From: Escherichia coli
GTDB lineage: Bacteria > Pseudomonadota > Gammaproteobacteria > Enterobacterales > Enterobacteriaceae
Length of the DNA: 64,000 bases
Direction: 5' to 3' (one strand)
NCBI RefSeq assembly: GCF_003991155.1
Contig: NZ_CP031293.1
How positions within the stretch are numbered: position 1 is the stretch's first letter; each line of letters begins with the position of its first letter. The position numbers were made by a program, and so were the translations under genes. Below are positions 1 to 16,145 of this stretch, one piece after another. Under the pieces are notes generated by a model, which was given only the letters and a program-made list of their open reading frames with translations, did not search any database and was not told the DNA's origin.

Positions 1-1272
1 CTTGCCGAGTCCGGAGAACGAAAAACCGCAGTGGACAAATTATTAATGAAGCCCCTGTACCAGCAGGAGATGCAGTTATATTCCAGATACAAAAGTGAAC
101 TGGCTGTCTGGAAAAACAAGGAAGAGCTTTTAAAGGCTCAGAAAAAAGCATTGTTGTCAAAACTGAATAAAGAACTCCGCAAAGGCGCGGATGAGTCAGA
201 AACCCTCAGACAACTGGAAGTACTTCAGAAAAACAGTGCGGAAGAACCTGTGAGGTATAAATTCATTTTTAATGATGCCACGACTGCGGCAATTAAGAAT
301 CAGCTTTGTGGTAAATGGCGTTCAGTGGGTATTATGTCAGATGAAGCCGGTATTATATTTGATGGATATACCCTGTCTGAGTTGCCTTTTATTAACAAAA
401 TGTGGGATGGCTCTGTATTGTCTGTGGACAGAAAGAATGAACCCGAACAGATGATTGAAAATGCCAGAATGACGTTATCCCTCATGGTGCAACCCGGTCT
501 TTTTGACCGATATATGGAGCGAAAAGGTTCTGTTGCCAGGGACAGTGGTTTTCTTGCCCGTTGTCTTATCAGTAAACCTGCAACCACGCAGGGGAAACGC
601 TTTATTAACGGAGCTGTGATTCCGGGAGGATCATTAACGGCATTTCATGAACGATTAATGGAACTGGCCAGAGGCAGTATTGAAAAATCCAGTGAGGATG
701 AACGGTATTGTCTGCATTTTTCGCCTGAAGCGCAAAAAATATTTATTGAGCACTATAATGTTCTGGAGCAGGATTTATCCCCTTCCGGACCCTTAAGCCC
801 GTTTCGGGGACATGTTTCAAAAAAAACAGAAAACATTGCAAGAATTGCAGCGTTATTTCAGTATTTCAGCTATGGTGAAGGGAAAATCTCTGCCGATATC
901 ATGACGTCTGCTGTCGTAATAAGTTCGTGGTACACAGATGAATATAAAAAATTATTTGCGTTACCTGATGAATCTGAACTGCAGCAGAAGGACGCCGAGG
1001 AGCTGTTCGACTGGCTCATTGAGGAGTGCCGCGGAGAATGCCCGCCCCGTGTCAGGAAAAATTATATTCTCCAGTGTGGCCCGGGCCGGTTCAGAAACAG
1101 GAAAAAACTGAACGCATTGCTGAACATTCTTGAATCTCAGTTCAGGCTTTCTGTCGTGCCGGAAGGAAAAACCATGTATGTTCTGCTTCCCCAGATAGCC
1201 AGTTTAAAGTTGTCTGATGTCTCTGGTATTTTTACCTCGGGTTATCACTACAATAAGCTGAGAGCGAAGTAA
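1..1272 (+). CDS. YfjI/DUF3987-like protein of P4-type integrative elements; 5' end lies outside the window
   Basis: Frame 1 is open from base 1 with no stop before the first ATG at 31, so the gene is truncated by the window edge. Conserved blocks SDEAGIIFDG, MVQPGLFDRY and GFLARCL fit the YfjI/DUF3987 family as I recall it. Confidence 0.55.
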   Translation, partial: LAESGERKTAVDKLLMKPLYQQEMQLYSRYKSELAVWKNKEELLKAQKKALLSKLNKELRKGADESETLRQLEVLQKNSAEEPVRYKFIFNDATTAAIKNQLCGKWRSVGIMSDEAGIIFDGYTLSELPFINKMWDGSVLSVDRKNEPEQMIENARMTLSLMVQPGLFDRYMERKGSVARDSGFLARCLISKPATTQGKRFINGAVIPGGSLTAFHERLMELARGSIEKSSEDERYCLHFSPEAQKIFIEHYNVLEQDLSPSGPLSPFRGHVSKKTENIARIAALFQYFSYGEGKISADIMTSAVVISSWYTDEYKKLFALPDESELQQKDAEELFDWLIEECRGECPPRVRKNYILQCGPGRFRNRKKLNALLNILESQFRLSVVPEGKTMYVLLPQIASLKLSDVSGIFTSGYHYNKLRAK

Positions 1273-1331
1273 CCGGTGAGCAGTTTTTCTCCATTATGCT
1301 TCAGACTTAGATGATTGATTATTATTGGGAT

Positions 1332-1371
1332 TTCATCACCGATATTCAGATGTATGAATATCGGTGATGAA
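1332..1371. terminator. Perfect 17-bp inverted repeat (TTCATCACCGATATTCA / TGAATATCGGTGATGAA, 6-nt loop) between convergent genes; possible bidirectional terminator or protein-binding palindrome
   Basis: Read directly from the sequence; it sits between the stop of the + strand gene (1272) and the stop of the - strand gene (1594). The stem is AT-rich, so a terminator role is uncertain. Confidence 0.35.
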
Positions 1372-1593
1372 CTAAAGCTCAGGAGCTGCGTGGTGGTGAT
1401 GAATCAACAGGCATATAACTGATACCCGCCGGTCAGAAGTTCCAGCCTGCGACTTTCCTGTCTGCGTGCCCGCAGTCCGGCGTTCAGGTGCAGCGTGTGA
1501 CAGAACGCACGGAGAGCGAAACGGCAGGCAGACAGGCCGTTCAGTCAGCCCTGGCACCCTGCCCGGATACCAGCTTCCCTGAAACAACTGGCA

Positions 1594-2202
1594 TCAGGTG
1601 CGCTTATCGTCAACCGTTGTGCGGTATGCCAGGAGCACGTACTGATCCATCAGATCCGTCAGTGCTGCGCTCTGCTTCTGACGGTTGATGATCCATTCCT
1701 CCAGCTCTTTTTCTGATTTCCGTTTCAGATTCTCCGTCCAGTCGTCAAGGCAGTTTCCGGTCATTAAATCAAGCCAGCAAAGCCAGACCAGTTTGAGGCG
1801 CAACTCCGTGCCACCAAACTGACGGAAGAGGCTGATCAGTTTATTTGCCAGCGAACGCTGCCTCAGACGTTCACATTCAGACAGGAGAATGCCTTCCAGC
1901 ATCGGATGATGAACCAGCAGATGTTCACTGGTGCATAAATTCACTATCAGATCATCATCCAGGGGCGGCGTGGTCCGTTTGTCCGGACCATAAATCAGCC
2001 GGTGCAGACTCTGGGGTACGATGGCAATCTCCGGTTTTTCACCATTGAATGACACCCACCCGGGCGTCAGATTATGGAAGTAGTAGATATTCGGATGACA
2101 CACGCCCCAGGATACGGCGTGCCGGGTGAAGCCGGTCAGCCATTTCTGGTAGCTTTCGTGGAGCAGCTCGTAACGGGTCTGATACTGTGGTTTCATTTTC
2201 AT
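1594..2202 (-). CDS. Hypothetical protein (202 aa), co-oriented downstream of the alpA-like gene
   Basis: ORF track 1594..2343; I place the start at the internal ATG (MKMKPQYQ...) at 2202, which has a GAGGAA ribosome-binding site upstream. I recognise no family. Confidence 0.5.
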   Translation of the reverse strand: MKMKPQYQTRYELLHESYQKWLTGFTRHAVSWGVCHPNIYYFHNLTPGWVSFNGEKPEIAIVPQSLHRLIYGPDKRTTPPLDDDLIVNLCTSEHLLVHHPMLEGILLSECERLRQRSLANKLISLFRQFGGTELRLKLVWLCWLDLMTGNCLDDWTENLKRKSEKELEEWIINRQKQSAALTDLMDQYVLLAYRTTVDDKRT

Positions 2203-2282
2203 ATTCCTCACGGGGGATAACAGGCAGCAGAACGCCGCCGGCAGGCCGGAGACTGCGTCTGCTGCAGATGAACGGTTAAGAA

Positions 2283-2489
2283 TTACGGACGGGACTGTGC
2301 AATACGCGCCTGCAGCCAGGCTTCCACTTCGCTTTTCAGCCATCGGGAGCTGCGGCCCATTTTGATGGGCGCAGGAAAGTCACCATCCTTGATGAGTTTG
2401 TAAAACCACTTATCGGTCAGGCCGGTCAGTTGAGTGATAAATGCCATGTCGACCATCTGGTCACCCATCAGTGAAACTGGGGTGATCAT
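2283..2489 (-). CDS. alpA: AlpA-family phage regulatory protein (short helix-turn-helix regulator of P4-like elements)
   Basis: C-terminal 68 aa (MITPVSLMGDQMVDMAFITQLTGLTDKWFYKLIKDGDFPAPIKMGRSSRWLKSEVEAWL...) match the AlpA family pattern; ATG at 2489 follows a GGAGG ribosome-binding site. The longer upstream extension in the ORF track is probably not translated. Confidence 0.75.
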   Translation of the reverse strand: MITPVSLMGDQMVDMAFITQLTGLTDKWFYKLIKDGDFPAPIKMGRSSRWLKSEVEAWLQARIAQSRP

Positions 2490-3192
2490 GAGAATGTTCC
2501 TCCGGATGTTGTTAAACCAGCCGGTGTGGTCATGAAAACAACGCACCACCTTCACCGGCATAACAACCGGGGAGAAACGTAAAAAATAATCGGGAATGTG
2601 ACCGCCAGGAGATAAACGGGGAGGTTACGGTGGCTGAGCCGTACCGGTATGCCGGGTGGTTGTTACGAAACGATGCTTCCGCACGCGCGCGCGATAAAGA
2701 AGGGATGATTTTCGTGAGGAAGAGGGGAAAACTGGCGTTCTGATAATTGCAGAGTTATTTACGGGGCGGTTACGATGGGGCAGACCGTGTCCGGTGGGCA
2801 GGCGACAGGTATCACCGATGGGATAAGACTGTCTGATTGGTATTATAAATATATAAGAGAGAGCAAACACATGAGATCAAATACATGAGTTCATATATGT
2901 GAAATAAACACGGTGAGTGTGATCAGTGGGCATGATGAGAACGCAGTAGCAACAGACTGCGCTATCCCTGATAGCTGGCGTATAACCTGCGTATATAAAA
3001 CGTACCAGCAACGCACGTGAACAGAGTGCATTAAGCATCCGTCGTTGACACCGACCTGGTGAGTGACAGTCTGAGAGACCGGTTAAGTGGTGGTACGGGA
3101 GTAATGAGTTTGGGGAGGGTACCAGAATGTCAGTCTGGTACGGTATGCTGACAGTATCACGTTAATTGCAGCATAAAGTGATGAGAGGCTAA

Positions 3193-3390
3193 TGGAAGTT
3201 AAAACCAGAGCAGTTCCGTCGTTGTTCATCCCGGGAGACACTGGAAAAAGTGATTTCCCACACGCGTTATAAGCTTACTCCAGCGGAGATGGAAGCCTTC
3301 AACTCTGCGGTCGATCACCGACTGGCAGAACTGACAATGAACAAGCTTTACGATCGTGTTCCCGCTTCAGTCTGGAAATATGTCATCTGA
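3193..3390 (+). pseudogene. 5'-truncated gene remnant; open frame with no start codon
   Basis: Frame open immediately after a TAA at about 3190, reading ...KLTPAEMEAFNSAVDHRLAELTMNKLYDRVPASVWKYVI*, with no plausible start and no ribosome-binding site. Consistent with a decayed gene of the integrative-element remnant. Confidence 0.3.
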
Positions 3391-3734
3391 GCGTTCGGTA
3401 ATCACAACTGCATCGCGCCAGGTGTTATCCGCTTTGTGATTCTTATTGGCTCTTCTCAGGTTATTAAAAGCTGAATATGTTCCTGTTGTCGGGAACCAGG
3501 ATAATACCGGGAACGTTAAGCGGTATAGCGACAACAAAGAATTCGAAATCAAAAGGGAATGGTGTACGGAGGTGTAGGCGGTAATGGGCCGATTTTCGGG
3601 CATTACCGACCTCTGCTGAGGTTTTCTCGTATTTATCGGGGAGCTGGTGCGTTACTGTCACTGTCTGGCACAGCAAACGCAGAGGTGGCGGGGCGCTCTG
3701 CTCCGCTGACTCCGGCTAATCTCTCCCCTTTTAC

Positions 3735-3932
3735 CTACTGCAACAGTACAAATACACTGACGCCTGAAACGACAGCCAGAATCAGCACAGGCAGTAACGT
3801 CAGTAGACAAAGCAGACGATCGGTATTTCGGTAATAATCGAAGGGATCTGCTGACACGTAGCCCGGGCAACATTCCGTATTATGAGGGATGGCGTTATCA
3901 CAATCCCTGCACACCGTTTTGCGTATCACCAT
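3735..3932 (-). CDS. Small Cys-rich predicted membrane protein (65 aa), hypothetical
   Basis: ATG at 3932 preceded by a strong GAGGAGG ribosome-binding site. The N-terminus has CxxC...CC cysteines, followed by one hydrophobic segment (LLCLLTLLPVLILAVVSGVSVFVLL). Confidence 0.35.
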   Translation of the reverse strand: MVIRKTVCRDCDNAIPHNTECCPGYVSADPFDYYRNTDRLLCLLTLLPVLILAVVSGVSVFVLLQ

Positions 3933-4135
3933 CACGTCCTCCTCACAATCTTATCCGTAACCGGCTTTTTGCATTAAAAAAACAACGCTGAAAATTCAGC
4001 CGTCAGTCCGGAGACGACAGTCGGGTTATCTCAGAGTGCCTGAGATATTGCCTGGTTGGAGATCACTTCAGGGACTCTGCGCATTTTTTACGGCGTGGTT
4101 AATCCGTATGAACGAAACCATACGGAGATTTAACC

Positions 4136-4705
4136 ATGACCTACAAATACAACCCCTTCTGGCAGCAACGTATTCGTGAGACGGTGCGGCACGCACTGGA
4201 TGTTCATCCCCGTCTGACGGCATTGCGGGTTGATCTGCGTCTCCCGGATGTACCGGCAGCAACGGACGCGGCTGTGATATCCCGCTTCATCAATGCCCTG
4301 AAAGCCCGAATCGACGCTTACCAGAAACGTAAGCATCGGGAAGGTAAACGCGTGCATTCCTCGACCCTGCATTACGCCTGGGCCCGGGAGTTCGGGGAGC
4401 TTAAAGGCAAAAAACACTATCACCTGCTGCTGCTGGTCAACCGGGATACCTGGTGTCGTGCCGGCGATTACCGCGCTCCGGGGTCACTGGCCGGAATGAT
4501 TAAACAGGCGTGGTGCAGTGCCCTGGGAGTGGATGTCGGGTGCCATGCCACGCTGGTGCATTTTCCGGCCTGGCCGGCGGTGTGGCTGGAACGCGATGAT
4601 GATGCTGGTTTACGGGATATGCTGAAGCGTGCTGACTATCTCGCGAAAGAGTACACCAAAGTCAACGGTACCGGTGAGCGCAATTTTGGCTGTAGCCGGA
4701 GTTGA
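4136..4705 (+). CDS. YagK/YfjJ (inovirus Gp2-like) family protein
   Basis: GGAGA ribosome-binding site before ATG 4136. Blocks ISRFI, KRKHREGKRV, KHYHLLLLVNRDTWC, GDYR, SLAG, AWCSALG, LVHF, YLAKE and the C-terminal RNFGCSRS match my recollection of the YfjJ/YagK family found in CP4-type and P4-like islands. Confidence 0.55.
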   Translation: MTYKYNPFWQQRIRETVRHALDVHPRLTALRVDLRLPDVPAATDAAVISRFINALKARIDAYQKRKHREGKRVHSSTLHYAWAREFGELKGKKHYHLLLLVNRDTWCRAGDYRAPGSLAGMIKQAWCSALGVDVGCHATLVHFPAWPAVWLERDDDAGLRDMLKRADYLAKEYTKVNGTGERNFGCSRS

Positions 4706-4964
4706 GCACGACTGGCGCGCCAATATCCGGCAAACCAAAAGTATGGGTTGTTGTCTGGCGGCAACGATGTATCCACTCGCCCACTGACTGTTTTTTACGT
4801 CAGTGTTCCATTGTGTGACAACCACAGTGCTGTAACAGCAACCAGCCTGCTTTACCCAAACTCCAGTCCAGATTTTAACTGAACCGCCATTCACACCCTG
4901 ACCACGCTGCCCGTACCGGGACGGCTGTTGCCTGCGTGTCGTCTGACGGTAAGGAACATATACT

Positions 4965-5366
4965 ATGTACGCAAAATCCTTTCTCGCTCTTGATAGCAAC
5001 GGACGTCTGACGGGCGCCCGTACTGCACAGGCCGCACCTTATGCTCACTACACCTGCCACTTGTGTGGCAGTGCACTCAGATACCATCCGCAATACGACA
5101 CTGAACTTCCCTGGTTTGAACACACTGACGACAGGCTGACAGAGCACGGTCAACAGTGCCCTTATGTCAGGCCGGAGCGCAGAGAAATACAGTTGATTAA
5201 ACGTCTGCAGCAATTCGTACCGGATGCCTTACCCGTGGTGCGTAAAGCCAGCTGGCACTGCAGACAATGTCACCACGATTATTATGGGGAGCAGTACTGC
5301 ACAAACTGCCAGACCGGAGGATTCAGTATTCCCCGGACAACTCAGGAGGAAATATGCGAATTCTGA
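4965..5366 (+). CDS. Zinc-ribbon protein with a CoiA-like N-terminal CxxC...PWFEH motif (paralog 1)
   Basis: AAGGAA ribosome-binding site before ATG 4965. Motifs CHLCGSAL...PWFEH and C-terminal CRQCHH...CTNCQTGG indicate two Cys4-type metal sites. Confidence 0.5.
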   Translation: MYAKSFLALDSNGRLTGARTAQAAPYAHYTCHLCGSALRYHPQYDTELPWFEHTDDRLTEHGQQCPYVRPERREIQLIKRLQQFVPDALPVVRKASWHCRQCHHDYYGEQYCTNCQTGGFSIPRTTQEEICEF

Positions 5367-5788
5367 ACTGTTATATGGCGAATGACAGCAAAGGCCATTT
5401 TGTTACGGCGAAAGAAGCTGCGAAGCACAACCGACAGGACGTTTTGTGCTGTGTGTCCTGTGGATGCCCGTTAACACTTCAGCGGGGCAATGACGGACAA
5501 CCACCGTGGTTTGAACATGACCAGATGACTGTCGCTGAAAAAATCCTGCTGCGATGTACCTGGCTTGACCCGGCAGAGAAAGAGGCCCGTCGTTTGCATC
5601 TGCAGGGCATGACGGTTCCGGATTATACGGTGAAGGTGAGAAAGTGGTTTTGTGTGATGTGTGACGAAGATTATGAGGGGGAAAAGTGCTGCCCACGCTG
5701 CGGTACCGGGGTATACAGCAGGGCGTGGGGGCGGCAGGAGGTGCCGTCGGAAGATGCCAGGGCTGATAATCCGTTACAGAGGCTGTAA
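5354..5788 (+). CDS. Zinc-ribbon protein with a CoiA-like N-terminal CxxC...PWFEH motif (paralog 2)
   Basis: I chose the internal ATG at 5354 because of the AGGAGG ribosome-binding site. Same architecture as the upstream gene (CVSCGCPL...PWFEH ... CVMCDEDY...CPRCGTG); overlaps the upstream gene by 13 bp, suggesting translational coupling. Confidence 0.5.
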   Translation: MRILNCYMANDSKGHFVTAKEAAKHNRQDVLCCVSCGCPLTLQRGNDGQPPWFEHDQMTVAEKILLRCTWLDPAEKEARRLHLQGMTVPDYTVKVRKWFCVMCDEDYEGEKCCPRCGTGVYSRAWGRQEVPSEDARADNPLQRL

Positions 5789-6790
5789 TGGTTGCCTCCG
5801 GAGCAGTTTGCGGTAATGCCGTTCCCGGGAATGGATTGCCAGTGCGGGGACTGTGGAGCTTAATTCCGGTGTTGGTGGCCTTTCCGTTGATTTTGAGCCA
5901 ACAGCCCTCCTGTGACTGACAGGCTGCCTCGTCATTCCATTCGTATCTCCAGTAACAGGGGGTTGTATTGTATTTTAATGTGCCGGTTCAGGCGTGCGTT
6001 TCCCGGCGCGTCTGCACCGGCTTAACCAAATTCAACAGGGATAAAATAGTGTAAATAACCGAAGTATTACTTGAAGAATCGGGGGAAGCATCCGGGGTTT
6101 TATTCAACAGGCATGGGAGGCTCCGGCTCTGACAGACATTGTACTGTGGAATGTTGTTACAGGTTGGGGCGGCAACCGTGCCAGGAGACCATGAGCCGTT
6201 CACGGCATTAAAGGCCACACTTCAGTCGTTTACATTCCCTGTGGTGGCAGGCATCTTCCGTTAAGGCGTCAGAGCGTTACCAACGTTATGTTGTCATGGC
6301 TCACCTTTCATAGTCGATGCTTATCTGGTGACTGAAACTAGCCGCAGATAAAGAGTGTGAAGTTGATACCATGGAGTGGAGTGACGTGCAGGCAGGAGAT
6401 TCGCTCTATGCAGGGTTGTGAGATGAATTCAAACCGGCTGTCAGCGCCAGTAATATTTGAAGATTCGTCCGGTTGTTATCCAGTGTGCATTAAAAACCCA
6501 GACATTATGGACAATACAACGGCTTCCATAACAGGGAGGAGCCTGTTTATTATCCGGGCGTAATGACTAACCTTTGTGGGCTTTTTCCCGTCGTGCTTTT
6601 AACGTTGAAGGCATTTTCTGCCTGCCGATTCAGGACAGCGACAAAAGCCATATCAGACTATTGGTCAATGATGACCAGCGTCTGGAGTAGATGATAAGCC
6701 AAATTGATAAACTGGAATATGTGATGAAAGTGCAACGTAATCAGTCCAATCCGACGATGTTTAACAAGAGTACGGTGTTTTTTCAGTAAG

Positions 6791-7573
6791 TCATTCGTCT
6801 TCTGAATCAGGTGTAATGATCTTTACAGAAGCATTCCGGCAGTGCGTAACATAATCTGCCGGTAACGGACGCTCGCTAATCAGAACATCAAATGCAGAGA
6901 GCGGTGCGAGGCTGGCAGAGGCTACTTCATCGAACAAGGCGTGGCGGGCGAGCAAAATTTTCCTTAGTCCACGGGCCATCGCTTTACGCTTAGTGGCAAG
7001 ATCTTCGGGATTAAACCAGCTGACGCCAAAGTGATCATGTACACCGCTGGCGGAAATAAATATTTTTCGCGGATTGAGAGAGTCTAATGGCGAAGAGTTA
7101 CTGGCATCGTAAAAAGCATCACTTCTGGCACGATACGTACCACCACAAAGTATTGCTGTCACATTAGGTTTTTCATTCAACGCAACAAAGACACGATGTG
7201 AGTAACAGATGCCAGTGAAGGTGATTGCATCCGGGATCATGCTTATAACGAGCGGTATCTCCTGGCCATTATCAAAGAAGATCAGATCATTTTCATTAAC
7301 CATTCCGGCGGCCAGAATTGCAATAGGTAAGTCATCACGATGATTTCTCGGAACGTCCTGGATTACTGGCATGGATGGTGCGGGTTTATGCACCATTACA
7401 ATATAGCCACCCAGTAGGGTCAGTGGCAGAGGTTCATCTTCCTGATGGAGATCGCGACGAATAGTCATTACAGAAACTTCCAGCATTCGTGCCGCGTCTT
7501 TCAAATGGATTCTGTCGGTTTTCTTAAGTATTTCAATCAAACGTCGGATACGCTCTTTTTGCTTCGTTTCCAT
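6791..7573 (-). CDS. deoQ: DeoR-family transcriptional repressor of the deoxyribose operon
   Basis: N-terminal helix-turn-helix (ERIRRLIEILKK...LKDAARMLEVSVMTIRRDL) plus DeoR-type sugar-binding domain, divergent from a deoK-deoP-deoX operon. ATG at 7573 has a GGAGAG ribosome-binding site; the ORF-track start at 7576 is a TTG. Confidence 0.8.
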   Translation of the reverse strand: METKQKERIRRLIEILKKTDRIHLKDAARMLEVSVMTIRRDLHQEDEPLPLTLLGGYIVMVHKPAPSMPVIQDVPRNHRDDLPIAILAAGMVNENDLIFFDNGQEIPLVISMIPDAITFTGICYSHRVFVALNEKPNVTAILCGGTYRARSDAFYDASNSSPLDSLNPRKIFISASGVHDHFGVSWFNPEDLATKRKAMARGLRKILLARHALFDEVASASLAPLSAFDVLISERPLPADYVTHCRNASVKIITPDSEDE

Positions 7574-7588
7574 CAACTCTCTCCGTAA

Positions 7589-7608
7589 AATGTTATAAAA
7601 ATAACATT
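7589..7608. promoter_or_regulatory. Inverted repeat AATGTTAT-AAAA-ATAACATT in the deoQ/deoK divergent control region; candidate operator
   Basis: 8-bp arms with a 4-bp spacer read directly from the sequence; TGTTAT-like motifs recur closer to deoK (about 7810-7850). Assigning it to DeoQ is inference. Confidence 0.3.
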
Positions 7609-7875
7609 ATGGCATTAGTAAACATTGTTTTAGTTACCATACTATACGACCGACCCTTTGAAATGAAAAGGGTATAGACTGCTGAATTTTCGGTATTAAT
7701 CCTGTTAGGTTGCTTATGATTAGATAGTGTTAGCCTGAGTGATAAGACTGGAAGTCTATTAAATAAACATCGGGTTGATGTGCTAATCGCGATCTCAGTC
7801 ACAAATGATGCAAAAGTAACATGCTAATGTTATTTAAATACCATTGTTATGCGAAAGTTTATAAGAGGTAGTGAA

Positions 7876-8796
7876 ATGGACATTGCAGTTATTGGTTCCA
7901 ATATGGTGGATCTCATTACTTACACTAATCAGATGCCTAAAGAAGGAGAAACTCTGGAAGCACCTGCCTTCAAAATCGGATGTGGTGGGAAAGGTGCTAA
8001 TCAAGCGGTGGCGGCGGCTAAATTGAATTCAAAAGTCCTGATGCTGACTAAAGTAGGTGATGATATTTTTGCGGATAATACTATTCGTAATCTCGAATCA
8101 TGGGGAATTAATACCACTTATGTTGAGAAAGTCCCCTGTACCAGCAGTGGTGTTGCACCGATCTTTGTTAATGCCAACTCGAGCAATAGTATATTAATAA
8201 TTAAGGGAGCGAATAAATTTCTTTCCCCGGAAGATATCGATCGAGCTGCAGAAGATCTGAAAAAATGCAAATTGATCGTTTTACAACTGGAAGTTCAACT
8301 GGAAACAGTTTACCACGCGATTGAGTTTGGTAAGAAAAATGGTATTGAAGTGTTATTAAATCCGGCTCCGGCATTGCGTGAGTTAGATATGTCTTATGCC
8401 TGCAAATGTGATTTCTTTATCCCGAATGAAACAGAACTGGAAATATTAACCGGTATGTCGGTTGATACTTATGATCATATTCGTTTGGCCGCACGTTCGT
8501 TAGTTGATAAAGGGCTGAACAATATTATTGTTACCATGAGCGAAAAAGGCGCATTATGGATGACCCGCGATCAGGAAGTCCATGTTCCTGCATTCAAAGT
8601 AAATGCTGTTGATACTAGTGGCGCTGGTGACGCATTTATTGGTTGCTTTTCCCATTATTATGTTCAAAGCGGTGATGTTGAAGCCGCTTTGAAAAAAGCC
8701 GCTCTCTTTGCCGCTTTCAGCGTCACAGGGAAAGGTACGCAATCATCTTATCCGAGTATTGAACAATTTAATGAATTTTTAACCTTAAACGAATAA
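7876..8796 (+). CDS. deoK: Deoxyribokinase (ribokinase/PfkB family)
   Basis: PfkB-family motifs (GGKGANQAVAAA; DTSGAGDAF). ATG at 7876 after an AGAGGTAG ribosome-binding site gives the 306-aa length I recall for DeoK; gene order deoQ / deoK-deoP-deoX. Confidence 0.85.
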   Translation: MDIAVIGSNMVDLITYTNQMPKEGETLEAPAFKIGCGGKGANQAVAAAKLNSKVLMLTKVGDDIFADNTIRNLESWGINTTYVEKVPCTSSGVAPIFVNANSSNSILIIKGANKFLSPEDIDRAAEDLKKCKLIVLQLEVQLETVYHAIEFGKKNGIEVLLNPAPALRELDMSYACKCDFFIPNETELEILTGMSVDTYDHIRLAARSLVDKGLNNIIVTMSEKGALWMTRDQEVHVPAFKVNAVDTSGAGDAFIGCFSHYYVQSGDVEAALKKAALFAAFSVTGKGTQSSYPSIEQFNEFLTLNE

Positions 8797-8823
8797 TCAT
8801 CCTGCACAGTTAAAGGTAGCACT

Positions 8824-10140
8824 ATGAACGATAAAAACATCATTCAGATGCCTGATGGGTATCTGAATAAGACTCCCTTGTTCCAGTTTATTTTGTTATC
8901 GTGTTTATTCCCGCTATGGGGATGCGCAGCTGCATTAAATGACATATTAATCACTCAATTCAAAAGTGTATTTTCGCTAAGTAACTTTGCTTCAGCATTG
9001 GTGCAGAGCGCATTTTATGGAGGTTATTTTTTAATTGCAATACCAGCATCCCTTGTGATTAAAAAGACCAGTTATAAGGTGGCAATTTTAATTGGCCTGA
9101 CGCTGTATATTGGTGGTTGTACACTTTTTTTCCCTGCCTCGCATATGGCAACCTACACTATGTTCCTTGCAGCTATTTTTGCGATTGCGATTGGCCTGAG
9201 TTTCCTTGAAACTGCAGCGAACACATACAGTTCAATGATCGGTCCAAAAGCCTATGCCACATTGCGGCTCAATATCAGCCAGACCTTTTATCCGATTGGT
9301 GCTGCGTCTGGTATTTTATTGGGCAAATATCTGGTTTTCTCCGAGGGGGAAAGCCTTGAAAAGCAGATGTCAGGAATGAACGCCGAGCAAATTCACAACT
9401 TTAAGGTGCTGATGTTAGAGAACACCCTTGAACCGTATAAGTATATGATTATGATTCTGGTTGTGGTCATGGTGTTGTTCCTTTTAACCCGCTTCCCAAC
9501 CTGTAAAGTGGCACAGACAAGTCACCATAAACGCCCGTCAGCAATGGATACGCTGCGCTATCTAGCTAGAAATCCGCGCTTTCGTCGCGGTATTGTGGCG
9601 CAGTTCCTTTATGTGGGTATGCAGGTCGCAGTATGGTCATTTACCATCCGTCTGGCGCTGGAGTTGGGCGATATCAACGAACGTGATGCTTCAAACTTCA
9701 TGGTCTATAGCTTTGCCTGCTTCTTTATTGGCAAGTTTATAGCCAATATCCTTATGACGCGTTTTAATCCGGAAAAAGTATTGATTCTCTATTCCGTTAT
9801 AGGGGCGCTGTTCCTGGCATATGTTGCACTGGCTCCAAGTTTCAGCGCGGTCTATGTCGCCGTCCTGGTAAGTGTTTTGTTTGGCCCTTGCTGGGCGACG
9901 ATCTATGCAGGAACACTGGATACAGTTGATAACGAACATACAGAAATGGCAGGAGCAGTCATTGTTATGGCTATTGTCGGTGCCGCGGTGGTTCCGGCAA
10001 TTCAGGGATATATTGCAGATATGTTCCACTCACTACAGCTTTCATTCCTGGTTTCTATGCTCTGCTTTGTCTATGTCGGAGTCTACTTCTGGCGTGAAAG
10101 CAAAGTACGTACCGCACTGGCTGAAGTCACAGCGTCCTGA
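8824..10140 (+). CDS. deoP: Deoxyribose permease (FucP-like MFS transporter)
   Basis: 438-aa polytopic membrane protein with fucose-permease-like features, immediately downstream of deoK. Confidence 0.85.
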   Translation: MNDKNIIQMPDGYLNKTPLFQFILLSCLFPLWGCAAALNDILITQFKSVFSLSNFASALVQSAFYGGYFLIAIPASLVIKKTSYKVAILIGLTLYIGGCTLFFPASHMATYTMFLAAIFAIAIGLSFLETAANTYSSMIGPKAYATLRLNISQTFYPIGAASGILLGKYLVFSEGESLEKQMSGMNAEQIHNFKVLMLENTLEPYKYMIMILVVVMVLFLLTRFPTCKVAQTSHHKRPSAMDTLRYLARNPRFRRGIVAQFLYVGMQVAVWSFTIRLALELGDINERDASNFMVYSFACFFIGKFIANILMTRFNPEKVLILYSVIGALFLAYVALAPSFSAVYVAVLVSVLFGPCWATIYAGTLDTVDNEHTEMAGAVIVMAIVGAAVVPAIQGYIADMFHSLQLSFLVSMLCFVYVGVYFWRESKVRTALAEVTAS

Positions 10141-10151
10141 GGAGAACCGTT

Positions 10152-11165
10152 ATGAGTACGCGTATTAATTTGTGGCGGGCGCTTTTTGGCGAGAAACCTC
10201 GTATCTTGCTGGAAAATAGTGATTTTACTGTCACGTCTTTTCGATATGACAGCGGTGTCGAGGGGCTTAAAATTGCAAACAGTCGTGGACATTTGATTAT
10301 TCTTCCCTGGATGGGGCAGATGATTTGGGATGCGCAATTTGATGGACACGGCCTCACCATGTGCAATATGTTTCGCCAGCCTAAACCGGCGACAGAGGTG
10401 ATAGAGACCTATGGCTGTTTTGCTTTTCATTCAGGTTTGCTGGCTAATGGCTGCCCATCTGCGGAAGATACTCATCTGCTACACGGTGAAATGGCCTGTG
10501 CCGCGATGGATGAAGCATGGCTGGAATTAGACGGAGATATGTTACGCCTTAACGGGCGTTACGAGTATGTAATGGGTTTCGGTCATCATTATCTGGCTCA
10601 GCCAACAGTGGTCCTTCACAAATCCTCTACACTGTTCGATATTAAGATGGCCGTAACCAATCTGGCTTCTGTAGATATGCCACTACAATATATGTGCCAC
10701 ATGAATTATGCATATATACCAAATGCTACATTCAGCCAGAATATCCCGGACGAAATATTAAGATTGCGTGAATCAGTGCCTTCGCATGTTAATCCCACCG
10801 CTCAGTGGCTGGCGTTTAATCAACGGATTATGCAGGGAGAAGCCTCTCTGTCGACGCTGAGTCAACCGGAATTTTATGATCCAGAAATTGTCTTCTTTGC
10901 AGACAAACTGGACGCTTATACAGATCAGCCAGAGTTTCGCATGATCTCTCCCGATGGCACCACGTTTGTTACTCGTTTCTACAGTGCTGAACTAAATTAT
11001 GTGACACGCTGGATCCTTTATAACGGAGAGCAACAGGTAGCCGCCTTTGCATTACCTGCAACCTGTCGGCCTGAGGGGTATCTTGCCGCGCAACGTAATG
11101 GCACGCTGATTCAGGTTGCACCGCAGCAAACGCGCACTTTTACAGTCACCACAGGAATTGAATAA
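10152..11165 (+). CDS. deoX: Aldose-1-epimerase-like protein of the deoxyribose operon
   Basis: 337 aa, GAGGAGAA ribosome-binding site, last gene of the deoK operon. Function inferred from operon context and my recollection of the described deoK operon. Confidence 0.7.
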   Translation: MSTRINLWRALFGEKPRILLENSDFTVTSFRYDSGVEGLKIANSRGHLIILPWMGQMIWDAQFDGHGLTMCNMFRQPKPATEVIETYGCFAFHSGLLANGCPSAEDTHLLHGEMACAAMDEAWLELDGDMLRLNGRYEYVMGFGHHYLAQPTVVLHKSSTLFDIKMAVTNLASVDMPLQYMCHMNYAYIPNATFSQNIPDEILRLRESVPSHVNPTAQWLAFNQRIMQGEASLSTLSQPEFYDPEIVFFADKLDAYTDQPEFRMISPDGTTFVTRFYSAELNYVTRWILYNGEQQVAAFALPATCRPEGYLAAQRNGTLIQVAPQQTRTFTVTTGIE

Positions 11166-11204
11166 CCACTCAAGGCCTGAACAGCGGCGCGCTTATCGTT
11201 AAGG

Positions 11205-11383
11205 TAAGCGCGTTTTTTACCCGCCAGGACAAGACTATGATAGCGTTGCCCTTATAGACGATCACATTATCGTCCACTCCAAATTTGCGCAACTACTGTA
11301 GAGTGGTGTACTCCACAGCTTCTTTGAGGAGCTTAACCTCCATTGTTTTCTTACCGAGCAAGCACTGCAACTCTTTTATTTAT
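11205..11383. repeat. About 180-bp segment, copy A of a direct repeat (second copy at 37163..37348, roughly 90% identity by eye); IS-associated
   Basis: Shared strings include GACAAGACTATGATAGCGTTGCCCTTATAGACGATCACATTATCGTCCACTCC and AACTACTGTAGAGTGGTGTACTCC. Copy B encodes, on the minus strand, the 3' end of an IS3/IS66-type OrfA-like gene. Confidence 0.6.
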
Positions 11384-11585
11384 TTGTAGTGGTCAACAAA
11401 AACTGGTCACAATTTCAGTTTTTTTCCAGTATCTATTTTCCGATTCGTTCGGCGGTAATCCACCGTTATATTCATGAGGCCGGAGTGCACTATAAAAGTG
11501 TATGCGTAAACCGACTGCTGTATGTAGCCATTAAGCCAGTATTGGTAACATAGGTACCCACCTTTTCAACTAGTGGACACCTGTT

Positions 11586-11870
11586 ATGGAACAAAAAACA
11601 TTATCAGCTGAACCCCGCAGGTTATTTTCAAATGAGTTTAAACTTCAAATGGTTAAACTGGCTTTACAACCAAGGGGTTCTGTTGCCCGTATTGCCCGGG
11701 AGCATGATATCAATGATAATCTTCTGTTCAAATGGCTCAGGCTCTCGCTGATCAAAGGGCGTATATCACGGCGTCTTCCGGTAACGAACTCTTCTGGCAT
11801 TGGCGTTGAATTATTACCTGTGGAGATGACGCTGGATGAGCGGCCTTACCCCGTTTTTTACGCGAGGTAA
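11586..11870 (+). mobile_element. IS66-family orf1 (TnpA-like accessory protein) fragment; downstream tnpB and tnpC absent
   Basis: EFKLQMVKLALQPRGSVARIAREHDINDNLLFKW parallels the intact IS66 orf1 later in the window (EFKIALVEQSLQPGACVAQIARENGINDNLLFNW). No tnpB/tnpC follow, so this is a remnant. Confidence 0.55.
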
Positions 11871-12085
11871 TTATGAAGATCAATGACTAGCCGTCGAACC
11901 GCGTGCATGAACTGCTGCACTGAAACTTCTCAGCTGTAAAATAATCCTTACGCTACGTACTTCTCGGAGCGCTTACGATTAATCGGATGCAGTCCTGACT
12001 GGAAGAAAGAAAAATGGAGAAAATAAGAGGAATTAATATCCTCCACGTTCCTGAAATCCTGGAGGATATTAATGTCATCAAAATA

Positions 12086-13342
12086 TTAGCGAACGATAAT
12101 CCCTAACAAAATACCCAGTGCGCCAAAGTCAGCATCACTGAAGGTGGTGTTAGCAAAACCAATATCACCCAGCACCGGCAATAAGAATACTGGCAGGAAG
12201 GTAATAAGCAAGCCCTGAGCGAAGGCACCCAAAATCGCACCACGACGTCCACCCGTTGCATTACCGAATACCCCTGCAGCTGCACCTACGAAGAAGTGCG
12301 GCACCACACCAGGAATAATCACGATCATGTTCAGCAGATACAACGTGAACATACCGATTAAACCTGCAGCAAAGCTACTCAGGAAACCAACCAGTACAGC
12401 GTTAGGTGCGTAAGGGAAGACGACCGGGCAATCGAGAGCAGGTCTGGCATTCGGAACCAGCTTGTCTGAAATACCTTTGAATGCCGGGACAATCTCCGCA
12501 ATCACCATGCGCACACCCTGCAGAATGATGTACACGCCAGCTGCGAAGGTAATGGATTGCATGATAGAGAACATGAACCAGTTTTTACCACCGCTAAGCT
12601 CTTTCACCGCATCTGCACCCGCAAACAGGCACGTCACCAGGAAAATTATGCTCATGGTAAAAGAGATAGCAACCGGCGTGTCGCGCAAGAACAGCAGACT
12701 TTTCGGCACATTCATGTCTTCAGTCGAGTGCTCTTTATTACCAAACTTGCTGCCGATGAAACCGGCCAATACATAAGATAATGTTGAGAAGTGGCCGATG
12801 GCAACGTCATCAGAACCGGTCACTTTCTTCATGTACGGATGCGCAATAGCCGGGAAAAAGACCATTGCCACGCCAACAACCAAAGAGCCAACGGCTATAA
12901 GCGTAACGCCGGTCATGCCTGCTGTTGCCAGAATTACCGCTACCATCATCGACATAAACAACGTGTGATGACCGGTCAGGAAGATAAATTTCCACGGTGT
13001 GAAACGGGCAATCATAATGTTGATAACCATCGCAAAGAACATAATCATCGCCATTTCTTTCCCGAAGCTTTTCTGCGCTACGGAAACAATGGCTTCATTG
13101 TTCGGCACGACACCCTGAATACCAAAGGCATGCTGGAAAATGTTTGCGAAGTCACCCAGTGACGACACAACTAAACCCGCCCCTGCGCCTAAAATCACAA
13201 ACCCCATAATGGTCTTGACGGTACCTTTAATGCATTCGGTTACCGGTTTTTTCTGTGCAATCAGGCCAATCAGGGCGATTAAACCGACCAGCACCGCGGG
13301 TTCGGAAAGTACATCGCTCATCAAAAAACGAAAGAAATCCAT
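12086..13342 (-). CDS. PTS ascorbate-family (SgaT/UlaA-type) transporter subunit IIC
   Basis: 418-aa polytopic membrane protein with SgaT/UlaA-type sequence character; co-oriented with IIB and IIA genes. Confidence 0.85.
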   Translation of the reverse strand: MDFFRFLMSDVLSEPAVLVGLIALIGLIAQKKPVTECIKGTVKTIMGFVILGAGAGLVVSSLGDFANIFQHAFGIQGVVPNNEAIVSVAQKSFGKEMAMIMFFAMVINIMIARFTPWKFIFLTGHHTLFMSMMVAVILATAGMTGVTLIAVGSLVVGVAMVFFPAIAHPYMKKVTGSDDVAIGHFSTLSYVLAGFIGSKFGNKEHSTEDMNVPKSLLFLRDTPVAISFTMSIIFLVTCLFAGADAVKELSGGKNWFMFSIMQSITFAAGVYIILQGVRMVIAEIVPAFKGISDKLVPNARPALDCPVVFPYAPNAVLVGFLSSFAAGLIGMFTLYLLNMIVIIPGVVPHFFVGAAAGVFGNATGGRRGAILGAFAQGLLITFLPVFLLPVLGDIGFANTTFSDADFGALGILLGIIVR

Positions 13343-13354
13343 ATCGCCCCCAGC

Positions 13355-13642
13355 TTACAGTGCGCCTAATTCGGTTAATGCCACGGACAAACGTTCTCTC
13401 ATGGCTTTCTTATCAATCATATTTTCCAGGGCGACGATTTTGCCTGCGACAGACTGCGCGACTAACTGCTCGGCAATATCTTTGGTGCCGACATAGATAT
13501 CACTCGGCGTCCCTTTCGCGGAGCCCAGGTCGACATGATCAACATCAGCGCTGATGGACAAATCCTTCAAAATGCTTTTAATGCTCATTTCCATCATCAG
13601 GCTGGTGCCTAAGCCGTTACCGCAAACCACTGTAATTTTCAT
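13355..13642 (-). CDS. PTS ascorbate-family subunit IIB
   Basis: 95 aa with N-terminal MKITVVCGNGLGTS (catalytic Cys motif of L-ascorbate-family IIB); GAGGAA ribosome-binding site. Confidence 0.8.
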   Translation of the reverse strand: MKITVVCGNGLGTSLMMEMSIKSILKDLSISADVDHVDLGSAKGTPSDIYVGTKDIAEQLVAQSVAGKIVALENMIDKKAMRERLSVALTELGAL

Positions 13643-13657
13643 AAATGTTCCTCAGAA

Positions 13658-14101
13658 TTAATAGCGCGCAATAACAGACAAAATGTCCTGCGTCGTTTTG
13701 GCCGTCAAAATAGCCTGTATGTCTTTTTCGTTATCGAATAACTTGGCGAGTTGAGAAATCGCTTCAATGTGGCTGGTACTGTCGGTTGCAGCCAGCACAA
13801 TCAGTAATTTCACTGGATCGTTTTCATCGGCATCAAAATTCACACCTGAAGGGATCAGGGTCAGTGCTAATGACAGCTTGTTAGCCCCCTCTTCCGGGCG
13901 CGCATGAGGCATCGCAATACCAGGGCCAACCACATAGTACGGACCGATAGTGTCGTGCGAGTGATAGATCGCATCAACATAACGCGGTTCGATAGAACCG
14001 TTTTCAATCAACGGTCGGCATGAAATCGCCACGGCTTCCCGCCAGTCTTTGACCTGTTCCACGACCTGAACGACCTCTGTATTTAATAGATTTTTTAACA
14101 T
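13658..14101 (-). CDS. PTS subunit IIA (mannitol/fructose-type IIA fold, as in UlaC/SgaA)
   Basis: 147 aa with the conserved histidine region (GIAMPHAR); GGGAG ribosome-binding site; first gene of the IIA-IIB-IIC operon. Confidence 0.8.
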   Translation of the reverse strand: MLKNLLNTEVVQVVEQVKDWREAVAISCRPLIENGSIEPRYVDAIYHSHDTIGPYYVVGPGIAMPHARPEEGANKLSLALTLIPSGVNFDADENDPVKLLIVLAATDSTSHIEAISQLAKLFDNEKDIQAILTAKTTQDILSVIARY

Positions 14102-14371
14102 ACGACTGATAACTCCCGATGATAATTAACAGGAGAGTAGATATTTTACGCATTAATTAATGTGATGATTGTCGCATTTGATAGCGCTATCTGATAACGC
14201 TACCAATCTTTGTGATAGCGCTATCATTTCTCTGCCGCCATGCTTTGGCTATATTCGGTTCCTGCATATACAATGCAACAGGATATTTGCTACCGTGGGC
14301 AAAAACTGGAAAGAGTAATGGTGAAATAAAAGTAATGAAAACAGCTGGTTGTAATTATCCATGGAGTCGAA

Positions 14372-15403
14372 ATGGAAAAAACACGTAAGCGCCGTGGTAC
14401 CGGACGGGTGACGCTGCAGGAGGTCGCTAACTTTGCAGGTGTCGGAACCATGACCGTTTCCCGCGCGCTGAGAACACCGGAACAGGTTTCTGACAAGCTG
14501 AGGGAAAAGATAGAACAGGCCGTAGAAGAGTTGGGTTATATTCCCAACAGAACTGCTGGCGCCCTTGCATCTGGTCACAGTCATACAGTCGCCGTACTGG
14601 TTCCTTCCCTGACAGATAAAGCCAGCTCCCGCTTTATGCAGTCATTACAGCAGGTGCTTAATAAAAATGAATTCCAGCTACTGCTTGGGTGTCATGAGTA
14701 TAATCAGCTCAAAGAAGCTGAAATTCTGATGACGCTTCTTCAAGGCAACCCGGCGGCGTTAGTTATTTTTGGTTCTCAGTTGGCTGATAAAACTCACCAG
14801 ATACTCGAGAAAACAAATATACCTACCATTAACGTTATCGGTTCCCCTTTCAGTCCGGCTCAAATTACCATCGAAACAGCATTTTTTGAAGCATCACATA
14901 AACTGACCGAACATCTGCTGGAGCAGGGTTATAAGAATATCGGATTTATCGGTGCGCATATGGACAACCGCCTGCAACGTCAGCAACTGAACGGCTGGCA
15001 TAAAGCAATGCTGAGCCATTACCAGAACACTGATCTTGTTATCACCATGCCGGATGCCGCAAGTCTGCAATTGGGGCGTTACGCATTAAACGAGATATTA
15101 CTGCGACAACCAGAGCTGGATGCTGTGATTTGCAGCCACGAAGAGATTGCGCTGGGTATAATGTTTGAGTGCCAGCGGCGTTTGTTAAAAATCCCTGGAA
15201 ATATCGCTGTAGCTTGTCTTGACGGTTCAGACAATTGCGATCAAACACACCCAACTTTGACATCCATCCGTATTGACTACAAAAAAATGGGGATAGAGAC
15301 AGGTAAGTTACTGATTGGACTATTGAATAATAATCATGATGAATCAGAAGAGTCGCGTATCGTGCAATTCAACTACCAGATAGAATTACGTCAGAGTACA
15401 TGA
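14372..15403 (+). CDS. LacI-family transcriptional regulator, divergent from the PTS operon
   Basis: N-terminal helix-turn-helix (VTLQEVANFAGVGTMTVSRALR) plus periplasmic-binding-protein-like sugar-binding domain. The true start may be the GTG at about 14410. Confidence 0.8.
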   Translation: MEKTRKRRGTGRVTLQEVANFAGVGTMTVSRALRTPEQVSDKLREKIEQAVEELGYIPNRTAGALASGHSHTVAVLVPSLTDKASSRFMQSLQQVLNKNEFQLLLGCHEYNQLKEAEILMTLLQGNPAALVIFGSQLADKTHQILEKTNIPTINVIGSPFSPAQITIETAFFEASHKLTEHLLEQGYKNIGFIGAHMDNRLQRQQLNGWHKAMLSHYQNTDLVITMPDAASLQLGRYALNEILLRQPELDAVICSHEEIALGIMFECQRRLLKIPGNIAVACLDGSDNCDQTHPTLTSIRIDYKKMGIETGKLLIGLLNNNHDESEESRIVQFNYQIELRQST

Positions 15404-16145
15404 GCCTAAAAGAGCGCTATTACAAAGTTAGCTATTGTGGTAGGGATAGCCGTTTCCGGCTATTCCCCGCGCAGTTCCGGATGTATGCTGCTAACGCATC
15501 CATTCCTACTTCAGGTATTTGGCGTAGAAGCGGATGCTAAAAACTTGTCGCAAAACCGCAATATCAGCCTGCAGTATCGCTCTCCAGATTATCCATTCCT
15601 ATATTGATGACAACGACAGGTAAGACTGTGACTCACCAAACTTGGATGTTTTTCTGAGCTTAAAGCTCGTTGCGTGAATAAGGCGAGAGTCAGCGAATCT
15701 CATTGAGGCCCGCAGCACCGGCTGCAATAAGGATATAGAGCAGCAATCTACCGTCAACGTCAAAAACACGGAAGCCTTGCAAACGGGATGCGTTCATATA
15801 AACAACATGGAGCAGCAACAGTACGATGCCTGTTGTTGCTCAGTCAGGACCTTTTCTGCCATGCGCGAGCCAGCGTCACGATTGATAAATAATGTTCGCA
15901 ACTGATTACTTTACTGCAACAGACGTGGCTGGTAATAAGCGCTGGCGGACAATGCAGGGTGAAAGGCTGTTTTCGGGTTGTCCGGCCTGATACATCAGAG
16001 CAATACGTTGCGTTAAAAACGGCTGTTCAGTCTCTGATGCCACGGGGTATTGCAACAATCATCCGGTGATGGACGGGAGAAATATCGACTCTTCCGTTAG
16101 TTTTTACAGACTGATAAAGTTTTGCCAGCTGAATCTTTATACGGA

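Follow-up and report, generated by a model that had tools for sequence, protein, structure and literature searches.

A putative Rep-class HUH protein and two zinc-binding paralogs in the core of CP4-type islands of Enterobacterales

The closest described counterparts of the locus considered here, a trio of genes termed gp2, ZnA and ZnB within a 64,000-nucleotide stretch of Escherichia coli DNA (RefSeq assembly GCF_003991155.1, contig NZ_CP031293.1; hereafter the window), are the Rep proteins of inoviruses and plectroviruses (G2P; Pfam REP_ORF2-G2P), which share with the gp2 product (Gp2) a family match and an HUH motif followed by YxxK. An HUH motif that precedes the tyrosine is the Rep arrangement, whereas in relaxases the tyrosine comes before the histidines. 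Ff gpII and plasmid Reps without a helicase domain borrow a host helicase; Gp2 is likewise basic and has no helicase domain. It differs from G2P in being only ~190 amino acids (aa) long and in being encoded by islands that carry an integrase, not by a phage or plasmid. We know of no characterised Rep system that travels with two zinc-binding paralogs and often with a dead copy of itself, as Gp2 does.

The two zinc proteins may be set beside several other systems. IS91-family transposases and the Helitron Rep are HUH enzymes with a zinc-binding domain of their own, and the fusion proteins from Serratia described below can be likened to them in joining a zinc module and an HUH-type domain in one chain; they differ in that the zinc proteins give no Pfam match to Zn_Tnp_IS91 or to a transposase and that the catalytic motifs are missing from the fused Gp2 domain. 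Ogr and Delta are zinc-finger activators of the late genes of P2 and P4, Delta being a tandem duplication of Ogr. ZnA and ZnB resemble them as small zinc-binding proteins of P4-like elements, and as a duplicated pair they recall the tandem-duplicated Delta, but each carries two distinct zinc sites and is encoded beside a Rep-like gene rather than late operons. Ogr_Delta is absent from the Pfam matches of ZnA and ZnB at E <= 10 and from the families matched by 34 aligned relatives.

CoiA, the competence D-loop resolvase of Bacillota, nicks DNA as a structure-specific endonuclease, and ahead of its nuclease domain it carries a small putative zinc finger (bioRxiv 10.1101/2024.02.06.579203). A likeness of ZnA and ZnB to this finger had been noted in the original prediction for this locus, which was made without database searches. 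It survives as a shared CxxC...aromatic-x-H...C pattern, which in CoiA precedes a DNA-nicking enzyme, and as weak, sub-threshold profile matches: ZnB matches CoiA_N at E = 0.39, and matches to CoiA_N and DUF7830 recur in nine of the 34 relatives (CoiA_N at E <= 0.1; best 1.3e-3, none <= 1e-3). The likeness extends no further. The PD-(D/E)XK nuclease domain of CoiA finds no match in ZnA or ZnB, which end after a second, Cys4 ribbon at 133 and 144 aa (130-145 aa for the Zn proteins generally), and the nuclease partner here is of the HUH superfamily and, except in the Serratia fusions, is provided in trans. Since the nuclease domain is absent, ZnA and ZnB are not members of the CoiA family and share with it at most a small zinc module.

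Integrated elements provide a further comparison. In the Pf4 prophage the AlpA-like excisionase XisF4 excises the element and activates the rolling-circle initiator PA0727 (PMC7379572). Pf4 and Pf5 thereby resemble the islands described here, as integrated elements that pair an AlpA-type excisionase/activator with a rolling-circle initiator; they differ in that the islands are without virion genes and that nothing in Pf phages corresponds to the Zn proteins. In Pseudomonas tmRNA islands, which are moved by a jumbo phage, intY, alpA, RadC and a Gp2-like gene form the probable core (PMC12595487).

Each piece of the present locus falls in a catalogued family (two DUF-type Pfam families and YagK/YfjJ), and its genes are routinely annotated. 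What is new is the reading of them as an island-core module around a Rep-like HUH enzyme, with two-zinc paralogs as its partners, a second, dead Gp2 in fuller versions and a naturally occurring Zn::Gp2 fusion; the mechanism of the module may prove conventional. The trio is part of the conserved core (gp2-alpA-ZnA-ZnB) of CP4-57/CP4-44-type integrative islands of Enterobacterales, and the Zn pair is very probably a backbone partner of Gp2 and AlpA rather than cargo.

The gp2, ZnA and ZnB genes and their products

The trio and its one spacer are laid out as follows.

4136-4705, plus strand: gp2, encoding a YagK/YfjJ ('inovirus Gp2') protein of 189 aa
4706-4964, plus strand: gp2-ZnA spacer of 259 bp, a position held by alpA in other genera
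4965-5366, plus strand: ZnA, 133 aa, DUF7828 (CCHC) and Zn_ribbon_11 (Cys4); the conserved paralog ('MYAKSF..' group)
5354-5788, plus strand: ZnB, 144 aa, DUF7828 and Zn_ribbon_11; the fast-diversifying paralog

The three genes are real and intact, neither chance open reading frames (ORFs) nor pieces of one broken gene. RefSeq labels them 'inovirus Gp2 family protein', 'putative zinc ribbon protein' and 'zinc-ribbon domain-containing protein', and no NCBIfam family was found for any of the three products. The original prediction had described a YagK/YfjJ-like gene followed by two paralogous zinc-ribbon genes, each with a second, C-terminal Cys4 cluster, that overlap by 13 bp in a manner suggestive of translational coupling; its coordinates are exact, and the profile matches, alignment and overlap reported below bear out the remainder. 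Its statement that no function has been characterised also holds, literature searches on the domain names having found nothing.

The longest ZnB ORF would start at 5267, but the ATG at 5354 was preferred on account of an AGGAGG Shine-Dalgarno sequence 6 nucleotides (nt) upstream, the conserved N-terminus of the orthologs (MRILxCY...) and the RefSeq start. With the TGA of ZnA at 5364-5366, this start gives an overlap of 13 nt, which recurs in loci L004, L023 and L010-L012 of our comparison; the overlap is 10 nt in L009 and 4 nt in L005 and L006, and L020 has a gap of 51 nt instead. The overlap and the Shine-Dalgarno sequence internal to ZnA fit translational coupling of ZnA and ZnB. Neither promoter-like nor terminator-like sites were found on the plus strand of the gp2-ZnA spacer, the fold of which is ordinary (z = -0.76), and a scan of 3300-6800 for sigma-70-like promoters gave zero matches, compared with 3.0 +/- 1.9 expected from shuffled sequences. 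The G+C content of gp2 is 57.7%, against 44-53% around it.

All three genes are under purifying selection, with ratios of nonsynonymous to synonymous substitution rates (dN/dS) of 0.10-0.29 in informative comparisons; gene by gene, the values are 0.11-0.29 for gp2, 0.14-0.25 for ZnA and 0.10-0.35 for ZnB. It is highly improbable that they are decaying relics, whether fragments of one frameshifted gene or functionless remnants. Truncated or frameshifted copies are common in databases, and the island in the window is itself rearranged, with alpA relocated and the dead Gp2 paralog lost, as decay might leave it; yet both Zn ORFs encode complete two-domain proteins preceded by strong Shine-Dalgarno sequences, their ortholog groups are kept across genera and intact copies exist in thousands of genomes. 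In particular, fragmentation of one longer gene by a frameshift is ruled out by the full two-domain architecture of each protein, the separate ortholog groups and the purifying selection. The trio is 100% identical to that of E. coli strain 95-3322, with which the window is collinear only as far as position 16161.

Gp2 matches Pfam YagK_YfjJ_C with E = 5.4e-45 (residues 23-187 on model positions 3-170 of 170) and is 38-40% identical to YfjJ and YagK of E. coli K-12. Its match to REP_ORF2-G2P is weak and local (E = 8.4e-5, residues 59-107 only), and the same family is matched at E <= 1e-3 by 12 of 13 Gp2 homologs, at best with E = 7.2e-7. Among these 13 homologs, which share 19-67% identity, E85, H94, H96, G110, W126, Y168, K171 and R182 are invariant and Y95 is nearly so. 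The HUH motif is H94-Y-H96 followed by LLL, and the YxxK motif, Y168-L-A-K171, lies C-terminal to it, an order characteristic of Rep proteins and not of relaxases. The HUH motif has been lost only in 'dead' Gp2 paralogs. The proteins are basic, with an isoelectric point (pI) of 9.8 for the gp2 product and of 9-10 for the homologs. On these grounds, Gp2 is best read as a putative minimal, helicase-less nicking enzyme of the Rep class of HUH proteins. No relaxase (MOB) family occurs among the Pfam matches of the gp2 product and its homologs; a relaxase-like role is still compatible with this result. Sequence searches of the PDB with gp2 and with a Gp2 profile gave no match, the only PHROGs match of the gp2 product is phrog_25019, a family of unknown function, and in the literature YfjJ, YagK and 'inovirus Gp2' occur only in gene lists.

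ZnA and ZnB descend from an ancient duplication, BLASTP giving 32% identity over 125 aa with E = 3e-16. Both match DUF7828 and Zn_ribbon_11, with E values of 3.5e-31 and 3e-9 for ZnA and of 9e-31 and 2e-18 for ZnB, as do all 34 aligned relatives. C33, C36, F53, H55, C100, C103, C113 and C116 are invariant in this alignment, while E54, W98 and C68 are nearly so, C68 being kept in at least 90% of the members. C33, C36, H55 and C68 accordingly define a CCHC site and C100, C103, C113 and C116 a Cys4 ribbon. In a confident AlphaFold2 model of ZnB based on the 34-sequence alignment (mean predicted local distance difference test score, pLDDT, of 87.9; predicted template-modelling score, pTM, of 0.58), the N-terminal domain is β-rich, and short helices surround its CCHC site; residues 73-85 form a helix, and a linker of lower confidence leads to a C-terminal three-stranded zinc ribbon.

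The paralogs sort into separate ortholog groups across genera and have diverged to different extents. ZnA orthologs share 51-98% identity across genera; those of ZnB share 23-91%, falling to 23-43%, and form several subtypes, and within E. coli ZnB is exchanged by recombination. Given this asymmetry and the purifying selection on both genes, the simplest reading is that ZnA is a constant subunit and ZnB a variable, specificity-bearing one. One relative, P0073, is a fusion of two DUF7828 units, and islands with a single Zn gene also occur, both of which fit an ancestral homodimer that became a heterodimer after duplication.

PHROGs contained nothing significant for the Zn proteins, a sequence search of solved structures with the Zn profile found no relative, and no paper was found that mentions DUF7828, DUF3279, PF11682 or Zn_ribbon_11. 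Many entries of the ZnB family in the AlphaFold Protein Structure Database (AFDB) and UniProt (B7MMF4, for example) bear the legacy name 'DNA-directed RNA polymerase, beta subunit/140 kD subunit' and others 'Ybl85' or 'Competence protein', none of which is supported by their domain content.

The island backbone and its cargo

Gene neighbourhoods were compared at 16 loci with adequate flanking sequence, drawn from E. coli strains, a plasmid-borne island of Klebsiella, Hafnia, Superficieibacter, Yokenella, Lelliottia, Serratia and metagenomes. At all 16, a Gp2 gene and alpA lie within ~2 kb of the Zn gene or genes, in three different gene orders. alpA stands between gp2 and the Zn gene in L010-L014, L017, L020, L023 and L031; the order is AlpA-Gp2-Zn in L007, L024 and L029 and ZnA-ZnB-Gp2-AlpA in E. 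coli I3. The commonest layout comprises a leftward block (GTPase, DUF932, antirestriction, RadC and CbeA/CbtA genes), a rightward operon of gp2, alpA and one or two Zn genes, variable cargo (an ars operon, a type VI secretion system, SMEK/CTD10-type genes or resistance-nodulation-division efflux) and finally the integrase. DUF2913 follows in the modules of Klebsiella, Hafnia and Serratia, and fuller versions of the core add this gene and a dead Gp2 paralog.

In the E. coli type found in the window, alpA has been relocated ~1.7 kb upstream and to the opposite strand, and gp2, ZnA and ZnB are still together. The backbone genes recognised on either side of the trio, and two small genes that lie between alpA and gp2, are as follows.

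2283-2489, minus strand: alpA, encoding an AlpA-family helix-turn-helix protein (excisionase/activator); tblastn with Klebsiella AlpA gives 66% identity and E = 3e-26 at 2289-2483
3211-3384, plus strand: N-terminally short Hha-like gene, 57% identical to Hha residues 14-71
3735-3935, minus strand: ORF of 66 aa, divergent from gp2, with a Cys-rich N-terminus (CRDCDNAIPHNTECCPGY) and a hydrophobic C-terminal segment
16122-16781, plus strand: ECs1377-family gene (NCBIfam NF052300, 1.9e-95), 95% identical to its counterpart in L005 (14129-14788)

RefSeq calls the alpA product a 'helix-turn-helix transcriptional regulator' and the product of the 66-aa ORF hypothetical; the latter has relatives of 52-56% identity in the E. 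coli islands L004 and L005 and no NCBIfam match.

Comparison with the island of E. coli M15 (L005) locates the boundary between core and cargo. The two are collinear through gp2 and ZnA to ~5327, with the breakpoint in the 3' end of ZnA; where L005 has 13429-14048, the window has 5328-16037, which holds a different ZnB subtype and ~10.2 kb of cargo. This cargo consists of a DeoR-family regulator, a ribokinase-family kinase, a FucP-like permease and an aldose-1-epimerase-family protein, which we read as deoQKPX, together with a transposase fragment, an ascorbate-type phosphotransferase system and LacI. Collinearity with the M15 backbone resumes at 16038, with the ECs1377-family gene and a cdiBA locus. 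The trio therefore marks the edge of the conserved core, and the cargo starts after ZnB. The ECs1377-family gene (RefSeq 'DNA-binding protein') directly follows ZnB in M15 and in Serratia oryzae (L009 1557-2183) and is thus probably another backbone gene, from which ZnB is separated in the window by the ~10.2 kb of cargo.

The distribution of the genes is that of a widespread island component. Of 5426 complete E. coli genomes, 3814 (~70%) carry the Zn pair, which is present at 8315 places in all (median two per genome, maximum seven), and 3852 carry gp2, with 8985 places; the near-equality of these counts was taken as support for a link between the Zn proteins and Gp2. Among 1.84 billion representative sequences the Zn family forms 251 clusters at 50% identity and, wherever an organism is named, is enterobacterial (Escherichia, Salmonella, Klebsiella, Citrobacter, Serratia, Hafnia, Yokenella, Lelliottia, Pectobacterium and others). 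A profile search of contigs with a narrower Zn alignment yielded six loci. ZnB is on only 32 plasmid records, mostly within the island on large Klebsiella plasmids. A phage origin of the trio was considered and rejected: in 50,697 phage records ZnB has no match and gp2 no close homolog, its sole match being one unverified 4.5-kb contig of low coverage.

No Zn gene was found in CP4-44, CP4-57 or the int-proximal part of CP4-6 of K-12, and the K-12 islands checked carry the gp2 homologs yfjJ and yagK. The absence of Zn genes from the three K-12 islands examined probably explains why these genes have neither a gene name nor an experimental record.

These neighbourhoods do not support one part of the original prediction, which had placed the trio among island cargo in a location common for defence modules: it belongs to a backbone conserved with Gp2 and alpA at every locus compared, and no convincing PADLOC match was obtained. 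The other role proposed there, element maintenance, is compatible with the findings. That the Zn pair nonetheless constitutes a defence, anti-defence or exclusion module, which might sense or block an incoming phage or rival element, is quite unlikely. The pair does lie at the border of the cargo, there are antirestriction genes in the neighbouring backbone, and ZnB diversifies fast into subtypes that are swapped by recombination, as arms-race genes often are. Moreover, the AbpAB defence system (YfjL/YfjK) follows yfjJ in CP4-57 of K-12 (PMC10732053) and so occupies the very slot, immediately after a gp2 gene, that the Zn pair fills here. However, AbpAB is on the opposite strand, unrelated in sequence and true cargo, whereas the Zn pair shares the orientation of gp2 and alpA and is conserved together with them; invariance of position and partners across genera is the behaviour of a backbone and not of cargo that turns over. 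PADLOC-DB 2.0 gives no match for gp2 or ZnA and, for ZnB, only PDC-S64 (E = 0.063 over 31 zinc-ribbon residues). The Zn domain is fused to a Gp2 domain, no effector-like domain is present and dN/dS is well below 1.

Possible roles of Gp2 and the zinc proteins

A second Gp2-like gene, in which the HUH and YxxK motifs are both lost, lies directly after ZnB in the Klebsiella plasmid island and in Hafnia, Superficieibacter and Yokenella. RefSeq names this dead paralog 'inovirus-type Gp2 protein'. It was located at four loci.

L023, 9493-10059: dead Gp2 paralog after ZnB
L010, 8426-9061: dead Gp2 paralog after ZnB
L012, 8336-9040: dead Gp2 paralog after ZnB
L006, 13519-14085: dead Gp2 paralog after ZnB

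In Serratia the two kinds of domain are found in one chain. The 454-aa protein P0185 begins with a Zn region (residues 1-137, DUF7828 and Zn_ribbon_11), which is followed by ~300 Gp2-like residues. The Gp2-like part matches the neighbouring long-form Gp2 protein with a BLASTP E value of 5e-23, and its HUH motif is degenerate (FLH). An hhalign comparison of the C-terminus of the fusion with a four-sequence Gp2 alignment was not significant; the homology emerged only in the BLASTP comparison with the long-form neighbour. The fusion is not an assembly artefact: Serratia isolates contain six such proteins (454-468 aa) with a mutual identity of only 45-52%, and a seventh, from S. oryzae, is in the AFDB. 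In one Serratia isolate the genes run AlpA, Gp2, a Gp2-like gene, the Zn::Gp2-like fusion and cargo. The dead paralog after ZnB and the Serratia fusions together point to a physical or functional partnership of the Zn proteins with Gp2.

The same evidence bears on a rival reading, in which ZnA and ZnB are zinc-finger regulators that act with AlpA, as transcription factors or as co-factors of recombination directionality comparable to Ogr and Delta, and Gp2 is a mere neighbour. This appears rather doubtful. In most genera the Zn genes share an operon with alpA, their products are small zinc-binding proteins, and the presence of two paralogs parallels P4 Delta as a tandem Ogr duplication. On the other hand, the recurrent fusion is to a Gp2-fold domain and not to AlpA or a helix-turn-helix domain, and when alpA moved away in E. 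coli, gp2, ZnA and ZnB were kept together. The Zn proteins have a neutral pI and give no Pfam match to Ogr_Delta or to any DNA-binding family. A link to AlpA regulation is nevertheless suggested by the Hha-like gene nearby, since Hha is reported to control alpA in K-12 (PMC7379572).

Another possibility raised by the dead paralog is that it and ZnA/ZnB are inhibitors or decoys that would silence the putative Gp2 nickase while the island is integrated and so spare the chromosome from nicks. The pairing of the Zn proteins with a dead Gp2 paralog, in a separate gene or in the same chain, is an arrangement typically seen with dominant-negative or regulatory subunits, and both the neutral pI of the Zn proteins and the optional presence of their genes across the wider Gp2 family would suit such a role. 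The Zn genes are, however, co-transcribed downstream of gp2 rather than expressed separately. We consider inhibition improbable, while noting that it differs from the reading preferred below only in the sign of the effect.

A structured element immediately upstream of gp2 is also relevant to how the module may work.

4096-4133, plus strand: imperfect 15-bp hairpin with its 3' end 3 nt before the gp2 start and the Shine-Dalgarno sequence inside its 3' arm

Folding of the region as single-stranded DNA is unusually strong: z is -3.75 over the 200 nt that precede gp2 (3936-4135) and -4.7 over 4066-4138. Hairpins of other sequence occupy the same position upstream of gp2 homologs in L023, L010 and L011 (Klebsiella/Hafnia), L013 (Lelliottia), L017, L007 and yagK; none was found upstream of K-12 yfjJ. 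Alignment of the upstream regions of gp2 across genera showed no conserved origin-like or other non-coding element beyond the last ~50 nt before the start codon. The hairpin is a candidate for a translational operator or for the nick/origin hairpin of a Rep protein.

The reading that we prefer, although it is put forward tentatively, is that Gp2 nicks the excised circle of the island for rolling-circle replication or transfer, with ZnA and ZnB as an adaptor or regulator. It is based on the Rep-like motifs of Gp2, the linkage of the Zn genes to gp2 and alpA, the Serratia fusions, the dead paralog and the constraint on the Zn proteins, and it has published precedents in Pf4, the Pseudomonas tmRNA islands and CoiA. 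AlpA and the integrase would excise the island as a circle, on which Gp2 would nick a specific site and thereby prime rolling-circle replication or produce a strand for transfer; the hairpin in front of gp2 might serve as the control or nick site. ZnA and ZnB might form a heteromer that binds Gp2-fold proteins as an adaptor, specificity or control subunit, and the dead Gp2 paralog, where present, would assemble with Gp2 alongside them. In such an assembly ZnA would be the constant partner and ZnB the variable subunit, recognising either a DNA site or another partner.

A stronger form of this proposal is unlikely, namely that Gp2 and ZnA/ZnB, with or without the dead Gp2 paralog, make up an unrecognised nicking machine in which a new class of two-zinc adaptor guides a minimal enzyme, akin to a Rep protein or a relaxase, to replicate or mobilise the excised pathogenicity and fitness islands of E. 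coli and related bacteria. If it were true, it would explain how islands without conjugation or capsid genes spread, and the ZnB subtypes would set origin or partner specificity.

Several observations weigh against assigning the Zn proteins to a Gp2-driven nicking reaction. The assignment of an HUH fold to Gp2 relies on motifs together with a weak match in Pfam. The window does not contain the dead Gp2 paralog, and it is to a domain of that kind that the Zn domain is fused in Serratia. Gp2-type islands without a Zn gene exist (CP4-57 and the searched part of CP4-6), and hence the Zn proteins cannot be obligatory cofactors of the Gp2 family; the word 'zinc' appears nowhere in the account of the Pseudomonas tmRNA islands with their Gp2-like gene (PMC12595487). 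The pI of the Zn proteins is near neutral (5-8), which is unusual for dedicated DNA binders and favours a role as protein adaptor or regulator over origin binding or primary DNA binding. Also encoded on these islands is YfjI (DUF3987), which might be a replication protein in its own right.

The module is among the most widespread uncharacterised gene sets in E. coli. Most E. coli genomes contain CP4-44/CP4-57-like islands, frequently in multiple copies; among them are many pathogenicity islands with a cargo of Ag43, contact-dependent inhibition (CDI) systems, fimbriae and sugar-utilisation genes. Should Gp2 be an active nickase with zinc partners, island mobility would become directly testable, and the Zn proteins would represent a new type of accessory factor for HUH enzymes, which are used as tools for DNA-protein conjugation. 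Should the Zn proteins instead be regulators or inhibitors, they would still provide a handle on island excision and stability.

Other features of the window

Beyond the ECs1377-family gene, the window contains the following features.

17003-18775: cdiB-like gene (ShlB/FhaC) of a CDI locus that follows the backbone gene, as in M15
18788-28654: gene for a CdiA protein of 3288 aa, same locus
38080-39444, minus strand: pgtP, first gene of a phosphoglycerate-transport region that spans 38080-44303
39753-41060: binding-protein-like gene, same region
41057-43066: pgtB
43047-44303: pgtA
45952-47523: IS66-family transposase
47773-47949, minus strand: AS-pc02 (RF02876, 53 bits)

AS-pc02, the only Rfam match in the window, is an antisense RNA that was first described on plasmid pHK01.

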